Source: Pseudovirgaria hyperparasitica
Lineage: Eukaryota
DNA length: 64,000 bases
Strand: one strand, 5' to 3'
Assembly: GCA_010093815.1 (NCBI GenBank)
Contig: ML996568.1
Numbering within the stretch: position 1 is the first letter of the stretch; each line of letters begins with the position of its first letter. The position numbers were made by a program, and so were the translations under genes. Below are positions 52,321-58,603 of this stretch, one piece after another. The notes under the pieces were generated by a model. It worked only from the letters and a program-made list of their open reading frames with translations, had not been told where the DNA came from and made no database searches.

Positions 52321-52998
52321 ATGACTACTATCACACGCTGGGACTGTTCCCAAGGTCCGCCAGGACAATCCCAAAGCTGCATCAGCACCAATGTTGAGCA
52401 ATACCAGCCGCTCCTGAACCATCTTGTCGAGGAGCGTCTGATGCGAGATACAAACGGCAACAACAATCCCCCACCACCGTGGCCTTACGGGGTAAGTGTT
52501 CATGTCACATATCCGAAAGAAGAAAAGCGTTCATTCCTCGCGTTGGGTAGTTTTTTCGAAGAAAACCACAAGGAAAATTTCAGCAAAGATACAGGCTGGG
52601 TGGACGAACGTTCGATTGGTGTGTATTGCGCATGTGGCGACGGCTGGTATGCAAAAGTTACAATATGGACTTGGCCGCCTGGTCAGATAGAGATTCCCAA
52701 GCTATCGCTGACAGATGTCGACTTTAAGAGGTTGGTCGAGTGGGATCCGTCGAGTCCAATCCTCGACACGGAGGAGTTAGAGACACAAGTCAAGCCTCGG
52801 AGTCCAGTCTTGAATACTCATGACTCAGGACTGCGAGCTGAGTCGATCCGCAACTTATTCACTGAGGCTGAACTTGCTCACATGGCCACTATGCACGATG
52901 ATATTCTTGCCGAGTCCGCCAATATGGGTCCTGAAGACTATGAGATTCTGGCCGGTTGCGCGAACATTTCTCTCGATTCCACGGCCGAAGCAGAGTGA
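52321..52998 (+). CDS. Hypothetical protein (225 aa), no recognised family
   Basis: Uninterrupted ATG-initiated ORF with protein-like composition; 3' end overlaps the convergent hydrolase ORF. Confidence 0.45.
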   Translation: MTTITRWDCSQGPPGQSQSCISTNVEQYQPLLNHLVEERLMRDTNGNNNPPPPWPYGVSVHVTYPKEEKRSFLALGSFFEENHKENFSKDTGWVDERSIGVYCACGDGWYAKVTIWTWPPGQIEIPKLSLTDVDFKRLVEWDPSSPILDTEELETQVKPRSPVLNTHDSGLRAESIRNLFTEAELAHMATMHDDILAESANMGPEDYEILAGCANISLDSTAEAE

Positions 52999-53960
52999 TG
53001 CAAGCTGTTCTTCCGATATCGAAGCTGTTCGAGAACCCACTTCACCTCTTTCGCGACAAGCTGTGGTCTGCGAATGGGCATGTCATGGCCATAACAATCG
53101 ATGACGACGTACCTACTGTTGCGGGATAGGCGAAGCTGAGCGGCCTTGATCTGATCATCGAAGATGCGATAGGAGTCAATGAATTTCTGTGCTCTTTCCC
53201 TTTCCTCTTTCGTGCCATTGCCCATCTTCACGCCATGCTCGTAGATGACTTTATAGTCTTTGTCGGCGGCATTGCATTTGATCACGCTGAGTGGTTTGTC
53301 GGCCATGACCTGTCGCTGCATCTCTTGTCGTTGTGCCAGCCATGTTCCGCTCCCGCGATTATCTTCTGCCCCGGCACCTTGGGTGGTTCTGCTTATGGCT
53401 TTGATTATGGCAGCCCACTCGTTGTCAGAAAGATGCGATTCTTCTTTGAGGTGAGTAACTTCGGCGAAGTCTACATTGGTGCCAATGACCTTGAGCTCCT
53501 CACATGGAACTGACGGATAAAGTTCAAACATCAGCTCTGTAGCAGAGTCGATGAGTACGGCACCAGCGACCGTGTTAGGATATAACTCTAGGAATGATCG
53601 AGCTACGATTGATCCGTAAGAGTGTGAGACAATGATGTATGGTGGCTCAACATTGACAGCGCGCATCAACGCCCGCAGTTCTTGGGCACTACGCTGTGTA
53701 GTCACCCACTCATCTGGCCCTCGATCGCTATTGTTGTAGCCTGCTCGGTCATAGAAATAGGTCCTAGTGAATTCAGATAGATTTTCCTGTAGTCGCATAT
53801 ATACTATAGACGGCGCGCCACCGCCTGTGAAGTATATTATGACAGGCTGACCATGCTTCCTAGGTGGACCAGACGTGGACAAGAATAGCTTGTACGAGCC
53901 CACCGAAATGAAGTCGCTCTTCGTTGAAGTCTCCCAAGGGTTTTCACTTCGGACGACCAT
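52938..53960 (-). CDS. Alpha/beta-fold hydrolase
   Basis: YFTGGG oxyanion region, YDRAGYNNSD, nucleophile elbow PPYIIVSHSYG, VAGAVLIDS, catalytic His in YGHDMPIRRP. Confidence 0.88.
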   Translation of the reverse strand: MVVRSENPWETSTKSDFISVGSYKLFLSTSGPPRKHGQPVIIYFTGGGAPSIVYMRLQENLSEFTRTYFYDRAGYNNSDRGPDEWVTTQRSAQELRALMRAVNVEPPYIIVSHSYGSIVARSFLELYPNTVAGAVLIDSATELMFELYPSVPCEELKVIGTNVDFAEVTHLKEESHLSDNEWAAIIKAISRTTQGAGAEDNRGSGTWLAQRQEMQRQVMADKPLSVIKCNAADKDYKVIYEHGVKMGNGTKEERERAQKFIDSYRIFDDQIKAAQLRLSRNSRYVVIDCYGHDMPIRRPQLVAKEVKWVLEQLRYRKNSLHHSASAVESREMFAQPARIS

Positions 53961-54156
53961 ATCGGCTCTCGTTATATGTCACCAAAGCGTGTTTTGCGGG
54001 ATGCTTGTGTTCTATCAGCCGGACGTTCGAGATTCTATCGAAATGTGCAGCAACTGAGGGGTAGTAGCAGGGGACTCGGAAAGGCGTCGGTTGTCTCGAG
54101 ATTAGCCACAATTCTATTGGGAGGCATCATATCTGACATTCTTGGCCACACCGAAA

Positions 54157-55359
54157 TCATTGGTCAAATAGAATACCAGCTGCTAGTTCAACGTTGTTTT
54201 CTGTTGCACTGAGAGCTTGTATCGCATCGGCGCGACTGAACCCCAGCTCGACCAAGGTTAACACATCTTCTTCTCTCCATGGGTGAGGCGTATGGACTGG
54301 CTGTATCTCGACTACACTCCGTATCGTCTGACCAATGGCCTTGACCCAATCCCATGGGTTTTTGCCGGCCATGTCAGGGTCGTTTTCTCCTGAGTTGAAG
54401 TACTCCCAACCCATGACACCACCAAACCCGCGGTGACGACTACGTAGAGTCCTGAAGACTTCCAAGAGCTTCGCAAGAGGGACACTCCCAGATCCGTTTC
54501 GTGATGTCGTCACGACTCCTAGAACAACCTTGTCCGCTGGCCATCCCGCCGCGATGATCGCATCGTACCACTGTGGCTGCGAAGCATCTCCCCATCCACA
54601 ATACAGCTGTGCATTCAACCACGATATCCTCGAGCCAATCTCGCTCCCAAATAGCTCAGGATAGGAGAAACCGCTTAGATGCTTTAGTGTAGGCTCGGTG
54701 CAAGCAGCTTTGCCGTTCGGCACAGGCGTGCTGTGGTCGAAATGGTAGGGGCGCACAGGGAGGAGGGGATTTTTAATCGTTTCTGGAAGTAACGCGGTAC
54801 ATGTCGGCGCATACGTAAGGAGGAAGTCTTTGCCAAACACGGAATCGAGTCGGCGCATGGTACGCATAGGCGTCGCTAGTGGAACCTCTTCTTCAATGTC
54901 GAGATCGAGGCCAGACAGTCCGTGTCTCTTGATAAGATCAATTACCGGTTCAAAGTAGGCATTGAACTAAAGCAGGTACTATAAGTATCATTCAAAACCG
55001 TGTTATAGAGAGCGTACTTCTTCTTCACTTCCACTCAACCGCTCCCAACTTCCCTTGGCTGCACCACCAACCATGATTGACACTTTGACGCCAGCACCAA
55101 GCAGCCATCCTACTTCAGCCCAAAGGGTATCGAACTTGGGATGATCTGGCGGATCATCATTGAGTGAGATGTTCCCGGGACCCTGATTGATGTGGAGCGC
55201 AGCGAGAATGACGTGCGTGACGCCGGTGTTCTGTGTGATTAGGGGAAGTAACGAGATTGGATTGCCTTCAGGAGTATGATGAGTCTGCGCATAGAGAACG
55301 AGACGAGGAGGGGTTGAAGACACAGGGAGAAGTCCTGACGATTGGGCTACAGGAGGCAT
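54157..55359 (-). CDS. GH18 endo-beta-N-acetylglucosaminidase-like protein (EndoT/Eng18 type) with C-terminal UBA domain; intron 54967-55017
   Basis: RLVLYAQTHH...PISLLPLIT..TGVTHVILAALHIN..ISLNDDPPDHPKFDTLW...GVKVSIMVGGAAKGSW; catalytic GLDLDIEE; QLYCGWG; GGVMGWEYFN; tail EEDVLTLVELGFSRADAIQALSATENNVELAAGILFDQ. Confidence 0.85.
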
Positions 55360-55816
55360 CTTCAATATCTTCTTATAACCCGACTGGGATGACCCCGAGC
55401 TGAGTCTTCCAATATTCAATCGCGGGGTATCAGAATCACCCGTTTCGTACTAGCGTCGAGGGGCAAGACGCGAGACGAGTACGCGTTCATGTGAGATCTC
55501 CCAGCATCAGACGCAAGGTGTTAGACAGTCGAGTAGTACAGATGTAAGAGAACGTTCCAATGTTTTACTTGCCGGTCCAGCCATCTCCACTACGAATAAT
55601 AAAGCGTTTACATGTATCCCAAGCCAGCGAGCCGCCAGGTCACCTGTCACTTGCCCAAACGCCAAACCACAATACCCAATATGCCCGTACATCAGAACCT
55701 AACCGTCTAGAAGAGGGCCAGCAACTTGATATTTTATCGTCAACGTCATTTTCAATTCAGGCTTTGGCGCTCGAGGTATATTTCATATCAAGCAAGGCCT
55801 TCTCAGAATCTCGTTC

Positions 55817-56966
55817 TTAGCGCAGTCCGTTCTGTCTGCCAGCCCAGATGTGGCTCTTGCCGTCAAAGTAATCATGCAGAAGTGCTTGCTTTGCGGATAT
55901 TCTCTGGGATGGGTCGTAGAATAGCATACCATGGAGGAGATCAATAGCATCGTCGTCCATTCCAGGCACAGTTTCCTCGAGACTAGCTGCGGCCCATTTT
56001 GGGAATGAGGCTTTGAAATCTGGGAATGTGCTCACACCTGGCCAGTCGTGCTCTGTTGGTGTGCCCATTGTACTGTCTTTCAATCAGCTTTAGCAAGAGG
56101 TTGTCATTGTAAATTTAGCCTACCGGAAAATCTTGAAAATTTCATCGATTTCCGAATCACCCGGGAAGAGAGGCTTTCGGGTTACCATCTCCGCGAATAT
56201 GCAGCCTACAGACCACATGTCGACTCCAGTAGAGTACTGACGGCCTCCGAGCAAGATCTCAGGGGCACGGTACCACAACGTGACGACCTGGACTAATTGT
56301 TAGTAACAAGCCATGTCATTCTATGGAACATGTACCTCGTGGGTGTACGTCCTCAATGGTACACCAAAAGCCCGAGCAAGACCAAAGTCCGCAAGCTTGA
56401 GGTTGCCTTCCTTATCAATCAAGAGATTCTGGGGCTTCAGGTCGCGGTGCAGCACACGGTGCGCATGACAGTACTTTACTCCAAGAACCAATTGACTCAT
56501 GAACCGTTTCACCATGTCTGGCCCCAGTCCAAGACTTTGGAGAGCACTCCCTTGAGAATCTTGAGGGAGTGCTTTTCCGCGGCCACCCTGGGATACAGGG
56601 AGTGCTTCCATATACTTCTTCAAATCGCAATCGAGAAACTCGAAAACGAGGTATAGCTTGTGGCCGTCGGCGTGAACGATGTTGAGGAGCCGCACGATGT
56701 TGGGGTCGTTCATCTCTTTGAGAAGTGATATTTCCCGAATTGCGGTGCTGGGTACACCTTCATCTTCTGCTTCGAGTCTTATCTTCTTCAACGCAACGAT
56801 GGGACGATCGGGTCTGGTGAGATCTCTCGCTTTGTACACGACACCGTATGTTCCTGTGATTGGCTCATCAGTACATAACTTCTGGTTCGAGTGAGCGATG
56901 CTGAGCAATCGCGCATGCGAAGACTTTACCCTCGCCAACCTTCTCCATTTTCTGATAGTTCTCCAT
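55817..56966 (-). CDS. cdc28: Cyclin-dependent kinase Cdk1 (Cdc28/Cdc2/NimX), multi-exon
   Basis: [90 protein letters not shown]. Confidence 0.97.
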
Positions 56967-57381
56967 GATGAGGGTGTAGCTCTCGGTTTGTTATCAGTTC
57001 CCAGTATATCCGAAGATCGACAGTTAGCGAACCGCGGGGTTCAAATACGGCGGGGCGCGCAAGAAAGCGAGGTTGAGGTTTTGAATGCCAAAGCTGAGCG
57101 TGTACGTGAGATCAAATGGTCATGGAGACTGTGGAGGGTTCATTGGTTAGTATGCGTCCGGGGAAAAGAAAGAAGGCGTTGCGTCGCACTATGCAGAAGC
57201 TGAGATGTTGTGGAAAAACAGCAAACGGTAAGTACCTAAACATGGTTGGCGGGCGTTCCTGGGCTAAAAGGCTTGGCACTGCGCGCGTTGGTGTCGCGCT
57301 GAAACGTGACCTGTCAAAATAAAATTCCGCCCGGTCCTTGTAAAGTAACGAACTGAACGTCAAGCCTCAGCTACCTTCATC

Positions 57382-58603
57382 ATGGACGCTCTGTCTGGTC
57401 TGGATGCTCACCAGAAGCCCCCGGAAGACATCCGGCTGGTCTATAAGTCATACCAGAAGATGAAAGTGGCGGCGTTAGATTGGGATGAAAACCTGCTAGA
57501 CTTTAAGAGAGAATTATCAAAAACGCATAAAAGCAAGGTCAAAGTCTTGCACACACTAGACTATGAACATCTTCAAGGTATCTTCCAACAGTTCACCGGA
57601 GAAGTGGTGGATGTCAGTAATCGAGCCTGCGAAAAGAAGGCAACGATTCCAGCTTCGATACCGGTGTATGAACACGATGACTGTCCAGGTAAGGATATTT
57701 GAACGAGGCTGGTACTGCTGCAATTTTCTGATCATCGCCTTTTCACGATGGAGAGCGGCTGTTCGACTTCGGACGTACTTCAAGCGCTACACCAGTCTTA
57801 CCTAGCCTTGCGCCTGACACTACACAGGCTTACGCATAATTCCATCCGCAATCCCATTGAGTACTCAAAGAGTTCTCCTGGACCGGCTGCTCCATCGAGA
57901 TCTCGTGAATCCAAGGCACATGACCAACGTGCATCTACATCACCACCTCATACAACCAGCGTCTGGTCAGTCTTTTTTCTCACTTCCACCGGAGCCTGTG
58001 CCAGTGTACAGACCAAAAGACCCGGCGGTCCATGGGCCCCTCACGCTCGAATCGCTTCTGAACCGAAAACTTCGATGGGTCACTCTGGGAGGCCAGTATG
58101 ACTGGACCAGGAAGAGATATCCCACATCTGAGCCTCCACCATTCCCTGATGATATCGCTCGCCTGCTACGCGGGCTATGTCCAGACATATTACCTGAGGC
58201 GGCAATCTGTAACCTCTACACCCCAGGTGATACATTGAGCCTACATCGCGATGTCAGTGAGCAATGTGCTGCGCCTCTACTGAGTCTGAGCATTGGTTGT
58301 GATGCAATATTCATCCTGAGTGCCCTGAAAGATAGGGGCACCCCAATGGAGACAACTTATCCACCTGCCACGATCAAATTGCATTCAGGCGATATTGTTG
58401 TGATGTCTGGGCCTTCTCGCTTTGCCTGGCATGGCATTCCCAAGGTCATTGCAGATACGTGTCCAGAAGCCCTGAGCGAATGGCCGTCATTTGAATGTGA
58501 CAGCACATCAAGTATAGGTGTCCGCCCTTTCTCGCAGTGGTCTGGCTGGTTGAAACGGAAGCGTATCAATCTAAATGTAAGGCAGATGTTTGCCGGTGAA
58601 TAG
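57382..58603 (+). CDS. AlkB-family 2OG-Fe(II) dioxygenase (ALKBH1-like); intron 57689-57827
   Basis: KLRWVTLGGQYDW, PEAAICNLYTPGDTLSLHRDVSE (HxD), LHSGDIVVMSGPSRFAWHGIP, KRINLNVRQ. Confidence 0.92.

Follow-up and report, generated by a model that had tools for sequence, protein, structure and literature searches.

Introduction

The systems described for removing N-glycans during endoplasmic-reticulum-associated degradation (ERAD) share one logic, in which adaptors of the ubiquitin system bring a deglycosylating enzyme of the cytosol together with the ERAD substrates (bioRxiv 10.64898/2026.03.25.714127). The enzymes concerned, Png1 of yeast and NGLY1 of animals, are amidases of the transglutaminase fold, which take off the entire glycan and bind a UBA protein non-covalently. 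NGLY1, which has a PUB domain, is coupled to HR23B and p97, and yeast Png1, a PNGase with a Cys-His-Asp triad, is coupled to Rad23. Here we describe a gene of Pseudovirgaria hyperparasitica, a Dothideomycete of the order Acrospermales according to a taxonomy look-up, that lies on the minus strand at 55359..54157 of a 64,000-nucleotide stretch of contig ML996568.1 (assembly GCA_010093815.1; hereafter the window). It encodes a barrel of glycoside hydrolase family 18 (GH18), resembling fungal endo-beta-N-acetylglucosaminidases (ENGases), followed by a C-terminal UBA domain. The protein shares the logic of the Png1-Rad23 and NGLY1-HR23B/p97 systems and not their ancestry: neither Pfam nor Foldseek finds a transglutaminase domain in it, and it stands outside the Png1/NGLY1 family. 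Unlike those amidases, a GH18 enzyme would leave one GlcNAc on the asparagine, and this one carries its own UBA.

In filamentous ascomycetes the peptide:N-glycanase (PNGase) is reported to be inactive in many species, and PNG1 of Neurospora crassa has no catalytic activity and no genetic coupling to rad23 (bioRxiv 10.64898/2026.03.25.714127). The N. crassa GH18 enzyme gh18-10 removes glycans from RNase B and takes over from Png1 when ERAD is assayed in yeast with RTL; a strain deleted for it is broadly altered in stress tolerance, in sexual development and in its transcriptome (bioRxiv 10.64898/2026.03.25.714127). Eng18B of Trichoderma atroviride has no signal peptide and is linked to ERAD, and SMART finds in it a GH18 module only (PMC3346758). 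The link between cytosolic GH18 ENGases and ERAD, which the first-pass annotation of the window had pointed out, is in print. The words ubiquitin and UBA are absent from both papers, and the openly searchable literature yielded no paper linking a UBA domain with GH18 or with an ENGase, nor any other glycosidase that carries a UBA.

Three further groups of proteins can be compared with the new one. Endo T (Eng18A) of Trichoderma reesei, with the structure 4AC1, is a proven ENGase, is reported to act without degrading chitin and shares with our protein the fold and the catalytic Asp/Glu pair; unlike it, Endo T is secreted, is processed at both termini with the loss of 43-46 C-terminal residues, and has no reported UBA (PMC3408457). 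Among solved structures the Aspergillus fumigatus protein 'ChiC' (2Y8V) is the best match in both sequence and fold, but its 290-residue chain stops at the end of the barrel, with no UBA in the solved chain. Finally, the aspartyl proteases Ddi1 and Mud1, together with the deubiquitinases USP5 and USP13, likewise combine a catalytic domain with a UBA, by which they engage proteins that carry ubiquitin, and their UBAs are those nearest to the tail described here; their chemistry is directed at polypeptide or ubiquitin, whereas our protein is a glycosidase.

A GH18 barrel and a UBA domain in one open exon

The gene consists of two exons, with its ATG at 55359-55357 and its TGA at 54159-54157, exactly the limits that had been proposed for it. 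Exon 1 (55018..55359, minus strand) holds codons 1-114, which encode 18 proline/serine-rich residues and then barrel strands beta1-beta3, and exon 2 (54157..54966, minus strand) holds codons 115-383 and the TGA in one uninterrupted open reading frame (P0001). Between them lies a 51-nt phase-0 GT..AG intron (54967..55017, minus strand; GTACGC...TTTAG), a feature that the first-pass annotation did not mention. The spliced product of 114 + 269 = 383 residues is 100% identical to database protein P0003, with exon 1 corresponding to its residues 1-114; P0003 is named in NCBI and UniRef only "glycoside hydrolase [Pseudovirgaria hyperparasitica]".

Contigs from two public runs, X1 and X2, which belong to the same sample and study and whose kind is unrecorded, skip 54967-55017 exactly, joining 54966 to 55018, with zero mismatches over the region. 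Three GT..AG introns of the adjacent kinase gene are likewise missing from them, and since exact GT..AG stretches are skipped in both genes the contigs look RNA-derived. This pattern supports the splice site and says nothing of the expression level.

The catalytic motif DLDIEE and the UBA domain both lie within the single open 269-codon exon 2, and the fusion is therefore independent of any choice made in the gene model. An error of gene prediction or assembly joining two genes would have a precedent of sorts, because 16 gene models of 707-769 aa in other Dothideomycetes merge a kinase, a GH18 domain and a UBA. For the GH18-UBA junction itself we judge such an error to be refuted by the open exon; moreover, the contigs of the two runs cover this exon without differences, and the same architecture recurs in 120 of the 120 best of 538 relatives. 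The fusion is not an artefact of the gene model, and we regard the architecture itself as near certain.

The tail, described beforehand as a C-terminal UBA within a single polypeptide, is a genuine UBA domain. It occupies residues 344-383 (54160..54279, minus strand) and passes the curated cut-off of PF00627 (22.4 bits) with 40.3 bits when exon 2 is searched and 39.4 bits in the full protein (E 3e-10 to 5e-10), as a profile check proposed with the annotation required; the match to UBA_7 (PF22562), at 24.5-25.1, falls under its cut-off of 27. In the AlphaFold2 (AF2) model the domain is a bundle of three helices (residues 346-354, 359-368 and 373-382) with a hydrophobic Gly-Phe loop, L355-G356-F357, after the first, and the last 54 residues folded alone give the same three helices (pLDDT 81.8). 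On solved UBAs the tail superposes with a root-mean-square deviation (rmsd) of 0.3-1.3 Å over 34-40 columns: 0.3 Å for Mud1, 0.6 Å for USP5 UBA2 (37 columns, 46% identity), 0.7 Å for the hHR23A UBA (43% identity) and 1.2 Å for the Ddi1 UBA (38% identity), with the UBAs of Cbl-b and EDD superposing as well. The Foldseek E-values of this short, 40-residue domain are just 0.05-0.9, and nearly all of the matches listed are UBA domains; by sequence, the tail matches the UBAs of USP5, Ddi1 and USP13 in the PDB.

Conservation was analysed in 99 full-length relatives that were chosen for having the tail, so that what they tell of is the degree of its conservation and not its presence, which is by construction. 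Averaged over the columns of the UBA, the most common residue has a frequency of 0.70, against 0.76 and 0.68 for the two segments of the barrel and 0.41 for the linker between the domains; the UBA is as well conserved as the barrel. This variable linker (residues 330-343; 54280..54321, minus strand; 330-345 in the AF2 model) has a pLDDT of 67-81, and the distance from barrel to UBA ranges from 15 to 94 residues among the relatives. Within the UBA, the loop after helix 1 is nearly invariant (L355 in 90, G356 in all 99 and F357 in 94 of the 99), as are the end of helix 3 (L380 in 98, F381 in 96) and other positions (L352 in 98, A365 and L366 in all 99), and surface residues of the domain are under purifying conservation. 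The loop L355/G356/F357 and the pair L380/F381 are at the positions that touch ubiquitin in canonical UBAs (loop 1 and helix 3), and the tail is predicted to bind ubiquitin or a ubiquitin-like domain. No ubiquitin gene was found in the 64-kb window with three short motifs.

An ENGase-like barrel with an intact catalytic pair

The N-terminal part of the protein is a GH18 (beta/alpha)8 barrel, which covers residues 18-329 (54322..55308, minus strand) and is split by the intron. The full protein scores 38.4 bits against PF00704, whose curated cut-off is 29.6, and either exon alone stays under that cut-off. The catalytic motif D135-L-D137-I-E139-E140 (54889..54906, minus strand) is intact, in agreement with the first-pass annotation, and places the D-x-E pair D137 and E139 at the end of strand beta4. 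Across 109 aligned sequences D135, L136, D137, E139 and E140 never vary, and the position of the first Asp of the chitinase motif DxxDxDxE is occupied by Ser132. In Endo T the counterparts of D137 and E139 are D129 and E131 (PMC3408457).

An AF2 model built from a 109-row alignment (mean pLDDT 91.5, pTM 0.85) shows the barrel at residues 19-329, with pLDDT mostly 94-98, and the three C-terminal helices. Foldseek returned at least 500 GH18 matches at E<=0.001, led by A. fumigatus 2Y8V (E 2.6e-30, 42% identity, TMt 0.89) and followed by the ENGase Endo T, 4AC1 (E 3e-28, 38% identity, TMt 0.92), whereas ordinary chitinases reached E 2.6e-12 or weaker at 12-20% identity. A sequence search of the PDB with exon 2 gave the same two proteins (2Y8V, E 1.9e-36; 4AC1, E 1.2e-25). 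Profile, catalytic pair and fold make the protein a member of GH18, and its description as EndoT/Eng18-like holds, 4AC1 and 2Y8V being the nearest structures. It stands nearer to the ENGases of fungal GH18 subgroup B5 than to chitinases by sequence and by fold, and it groups with B5 in trees. From these likenesses the 383-residue protein is predicted to have ENGase activity.

The barrel carries an insert after the APTCTALLP strand, at residues 174-210 (54679..54789, minus strand; about 181-215 in the AF2 model, pLDDT 71-85). This segment of about 35 residues is lineage-specific: it is found in most Dothideomycete relatives (8-43 residues, median 31, in the 99 UBA-bearing relatives, with a mean top-residue frequency of 0.37) and is absent from the alignments with 2Y8V and 4AC1 and from the Trichoderma-type protein. 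It may alter the shape of the substrate cleft.

The same data bear on the suggestion that the protein is an intracellular chitinase, or a hydrolase of chitin oligomers, without activity on N-glycans. GH18 chemistry is common to both types of enzyme, the depositors' title of 2Y8V is 'chitinase ChiC', and the databases list relatives as 'chitinase' or 'class III chitinase'. These database names are automatic, however, and the mis-annotation as a chitinase that had been foreseen for this protein is borne out by them and goes as far as 'cyclin-dependent kinase'. Against E-values of about 1e-28 to 1e-30 for Endo T and 2Y8V, characterised chitinases reach 1e-12 or weaker, and the sister clade in the trees holds the Eng18B/gh18-10 type, for which ENGase activity has been shown. 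We therefore consider a chitinase of this kind very unlikely.

A predicted cytosolic protein

The N-terminus, MPPVAQSSGLLPVSSTPPRLVLYAQT, contains no hydrophobic run: its first 18 residues are rich in proline and serine, and barrel strand beta1 begins at residue 19. An in-frame stop at 55452-55450 precedes the start codon by 90 nt, and the interval holds no other ATG. Because contig X1 is unbroken from 55018 to 56072, no upstream exon is spliced on. Relatives of two fungal classes share the start MPP..P..PR(L/I)(I/V).Y.QTHH. By inspection and a crude hydropathy rule, the protein has neither a signal peptide nor a transmembrane segment, which agrees with the lack of a hydrophobic leader noticed at first, and with no upstream coding exon it is predicted to be cytosolic.

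The fusion across Dothideomycetes and its absence from Sordariomycete relatives

A search with exon 2 found 538 proteins at E<=0.001, the best 120 of which were listed, with names on only part of the rows. A precomputed Pfam match to the UBA family is present in 98 of these 120, and a tail profile built from the relatives' own tails matches every one of them. All of the named UBA-bearing matches, among those listed, are Dothideomycetes, and they come from the orders Pleosporales, Botryosphaeriales, Dothideales, Mycosphaerellales, Mytilinidiales, Patellariales, Trypetheliales and Venturiales, plus Coniosporium (the class of three lineages was checked against taxonomy, that of the rest follows established classification). 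The GH18-UBA fusion is class-wide in Dothideomycetes, and among the named rows listed it is seen in this class alone.

With the Venturia effusa protein P0130 as query, the tail profile was matched by 51 of 56 further proteins; the other five (P0272, P0273, P0297, P0298 from Microthyrium, and P0300) may be truncated models or real losses. In a search of 1.84 billion cluster representatives, 696 relatives were found at E<=0.001, of which 150 were listed and 94 of these scanned with Pfam (the entries ranked down to P0221, less 8 shorter than 200 aa). The UBA cut-off was reached by 13 of the 94, and two more gave sub-threshold matches; remaining representatives with other additions carry ankyrin repeats, ricin-B lectin domains or F5/8-C domains.

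A search with P0129 led to a neighbouring clade of Sordariomycetes, including Trichoderma (337-339 aa), Metarhizium, Fusarium, Colletotrichum and Chaetomium. The Trichoderma proteins in it are called Eng18B-type by their length and by the motif positions given in PMC3346758, not by accession. Like the protein described here, Eng18B of T. atroviride and gh18-10 of N. crassa have a GH18 barrel with the same D-x-E and no signal peptide. Unlike it, the Sordariomycete Eng18B-type relatives have no UBA: none was found in the 120 listed, either by precomputed Pfam matches or by the tail profile at E<=10. P0003 aligns with a 337-aa protein of Trichoderma gamsii at 44% identity (E 7e-93), up to residue 346 and no further, which is the start of the UBA.

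Trees were made from the barrel only, are unrooted and contain no labelled chitinase outgroup. In a FastTree analysis of 102 rows our protein falls in a clade of signal-less, UBA-bearing proteins with support 97, and in a quick IQ-TREE analysis under a mixture model (66 rows) the clade has support 91 (37 rows) and a 28-row subset of it 98. The Sordariomycete clade, itself supported at 97, adjoins this clade in both trees, and deeper forks are weak. The subgroup phylogeny that the first-pass annotation had proposed as a check sets the protein's clade beside the Sordariomycete Eng18B/gh18-10-type clade. Based on these comparisons, the protein appears to correspond, among Dothideomycetes, to Eng18B of Trichoderma and gh18-10 of Neurospora in subgroup B5. 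A second, separate UBA lineage was considered for P0130, which stood outside the main UBA clade in FastTree, and was rejected: the protein is from Venturia effusa and falls inside the clade under the mixture model.

In place of a UBA, the Sordariomycete proteins have a tail of another kind. All eight of the tails printed, from among the 120 listed (P0331, P0334, P0343, P0351, P0372, P0381, P0400 and P0416), end acidic, with a conserved motif close to (D/E)(P/A)D...(P)xxF(D/E/Q)Y(Y/H)S(D/E)G and more acidic residues after it. This motif might be a docking signal of its own, with a job analogous to that of the UBA; it goes unmentioned in the available part of the Eng18B paper (PMC3346758).

Six further proteins, picked through a match to the tail profile or by eye (P0136, P0149, P0156, P0157, P0214 and P0221), have tails homologous to that of the Dothideomycete proteins (hhalign 98.5%, E 1.7e-15). 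None of the six reaches the Pfam UBA profile, the best being P0214 with E 0.11, and these degenerate tails have lost the Phe of the Gly-Phe loop to other residues. The proteins are Ascomycota according to the Atlas and nest within the Dothideomycete-type clade in the mixture-model tree (supports 85-99). They may be secreted duplicates whose UBA is decaying.

We also considered that the UBA tail might be ancestral to all B5 ENGases, with the 43-46-residue peptide cleaved from Endo T as a relic of it. The idea was dropped because the degenerate tails fail the Pfam UBA profile and nest inside the Dothideomycete-type clade, and because P0150, P0174 and P0180, which bear signal peptides and lie in the Sordariomycete clade, gave no match to the tail profile. 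The tail of P0150, the only one of these three to be printed, is not UBA-like, and the mature N-terminus of Endo T had no match among the proteins fetched.

Proposed function of the fusion

On balance we lean towards the view that the protein is a cytosolic B5 ENGase which its UBA aims at ERAD substrates. The enzyme would cleave the chitobiose core of high-mannose N-glycans on misfolded glycoproteins that have been retrotranslocated. A flexible linker of variable length would tether the barrel to the C-terminal UBA, and the UBA would bind either ubiquitin chains on the substrates or a ubiquitin-like (UBL) domain at the Cdc48/proteasome stage, in this way concentrating the enzyme where ERAD substrates emerge. 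One polypeptide could then do the job that yeast divides between Png1 and the UBA protein Rad23.

Several observations weigh against this view. UBA domains vary widely in their affinity for ubiquitin, and some bind other partners. At N371 (54196-54198), in the loop before helix 3, 98 of the 99 relatives have a Gly, and our protein is the sole exception. The closest solved structure, 2Y8V, is called a chitinase by its depositors. Three of the proteins with a degenerate homologous tail (P0136, P0156 and P0157) have classical signal-peptide-like N-termini; outside the cell such a tail cannot meet ubiquitin, and the module may therefore have another role, for example in folding. Finally, gh18-10, which has no UBA, is sufficient in the yeast ERAD reporter (bioRxiv 10.64898/2026.03.25.714127). 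Since an enzyme without a UBA already replaces Png1, the UBA must be an addition and not a requirement of the pathway.

The last two of these points also favour what we regard as the main rival, namely that the protein is a cytosolic ENGase whose UBA serves the enzyme itself, or another partner, and does not aim it at substrates: it could act in protection from the proteasome, in dimerisation, in auto-regulation or in docking to a UBL domain. The C-terminal UBA of Rad23 has been reported to protect against proteasomal degradation, and the C-terminal position of the present UBA behind a long flexible linker recalls the shuttle factors Rad23, Ddi1 and Dsk2. The conserved residues of the loop and of the end of helix 3 are, on the other hand, the presumed ubiquitin-contacting positions, and the nearest structures are ubiquitin-binding UBAs, some of which, such as those of Cbl-b and EDD, were solved with ubiquitin. 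We consider a UBA of this self-serving kind unlikely, although it deserves the most attention among the alternatives.

Less probable still, in our estimate, is a cytosolic ENGase that acts on free oligosaccharides or on specific regulatory glycoproteins, with the UBA making its amount or its place in the cell depend on the ubiquitin system. In animals the substrates of the cytosolic ENGase are for the most part free glycans that PNGase has set loose. The broad effects of gh18-10 deletion would also fit with such a role (bioRxiv 10.64898/2026.03.25.714127). Where PNGase is inactive, however, free glycans that keep a chitobiose core are few, and gh18-10 acts on a glycoprotein, RNase B, as well as on the RTL reporter (same source).

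The preferred reading, that of an ENGase aimed at ERAD substrates by its UBA, can be extended to a more far-reaching proposal, which we put forward tentatively and think rather less probable than its opposite. Dothideomycetes may have hard-wired ubiquitin recognition into their ERAD deglycosylase: the UBA would bind polyubiquitin, one polypeptide would replace both the lost catalysis of Png1 and the adaptor Rad23, and the degenerate tails of the signal-peptide-bearing relatives would be fossils of duplicates redirected to secretion.

Neighbouring genes

Directly upstream of the ENGase gene lies a CDK1/cdc2-type kinase gene on the same strand (55817-57040, minus strand), one exon of which matches Pkinase with 123.7 bits. 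The three introns skipped by the contigs in this gene are 56073-56123, 56286-56333 and 56853-56928. The stop codon of the kinase is kept in contig X1, and in run X2 the two genes are on separate contigs; for these reasons the merged models of 707-769 aa seen in other Dothideomycetes look like annotation artefacts. Several stand-alone GH18-UBA proteins of 300-415 aa are named 'cyclin-dependent kinase'. The kinase and the ENGase thus look like a conserved gene pair with an annotation error that has been propagated, and not like a real fusion.

Two other open reading frames near the gene have no evident link to the ENGase. Downstream of it, at 52941-53978 (minus strand), is one for a protein with an alpha/beta-hydrolase fold (PF00561, 44.1 bits), and upstream of the kinase, at 57818-58600 (plus strand), is one for a 2OG-Fe(II) oxygenase (PF13532, 108.8 bits).

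Significance

The pair of domains is visible in public annotations, where two relatives already go by the name "UBA domain-containing protein"; what is new is the recognition of what the combination of GH18 with a UBA implies, and not the pair itself. A correction of the annotation would be of practical use, as the labels now in place are chitinase, glycoside hydrolase and cyclin-dependent kinase, and the class concerned includes crop pathogens and model species such as Zymoseptoria, Parastagonospora, Alternaria, Venturia and Aureobasidium. If the more far-reaching proposal is true, this would be the first known case of a glycosidase guided by ubiquitin. An ENGase tethered to ubiquitin could also serve as a reagent that marks ubiquitylated glycoproteins. 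How ERAD substrates are deglycosylated in filamentous ascomycetes without an active PNGase, and how the GH18 ENGase that takes its place finds them, is a live question, to which a covalently attached UBA conserved across a fungal class would offer a concrete and testable answer.

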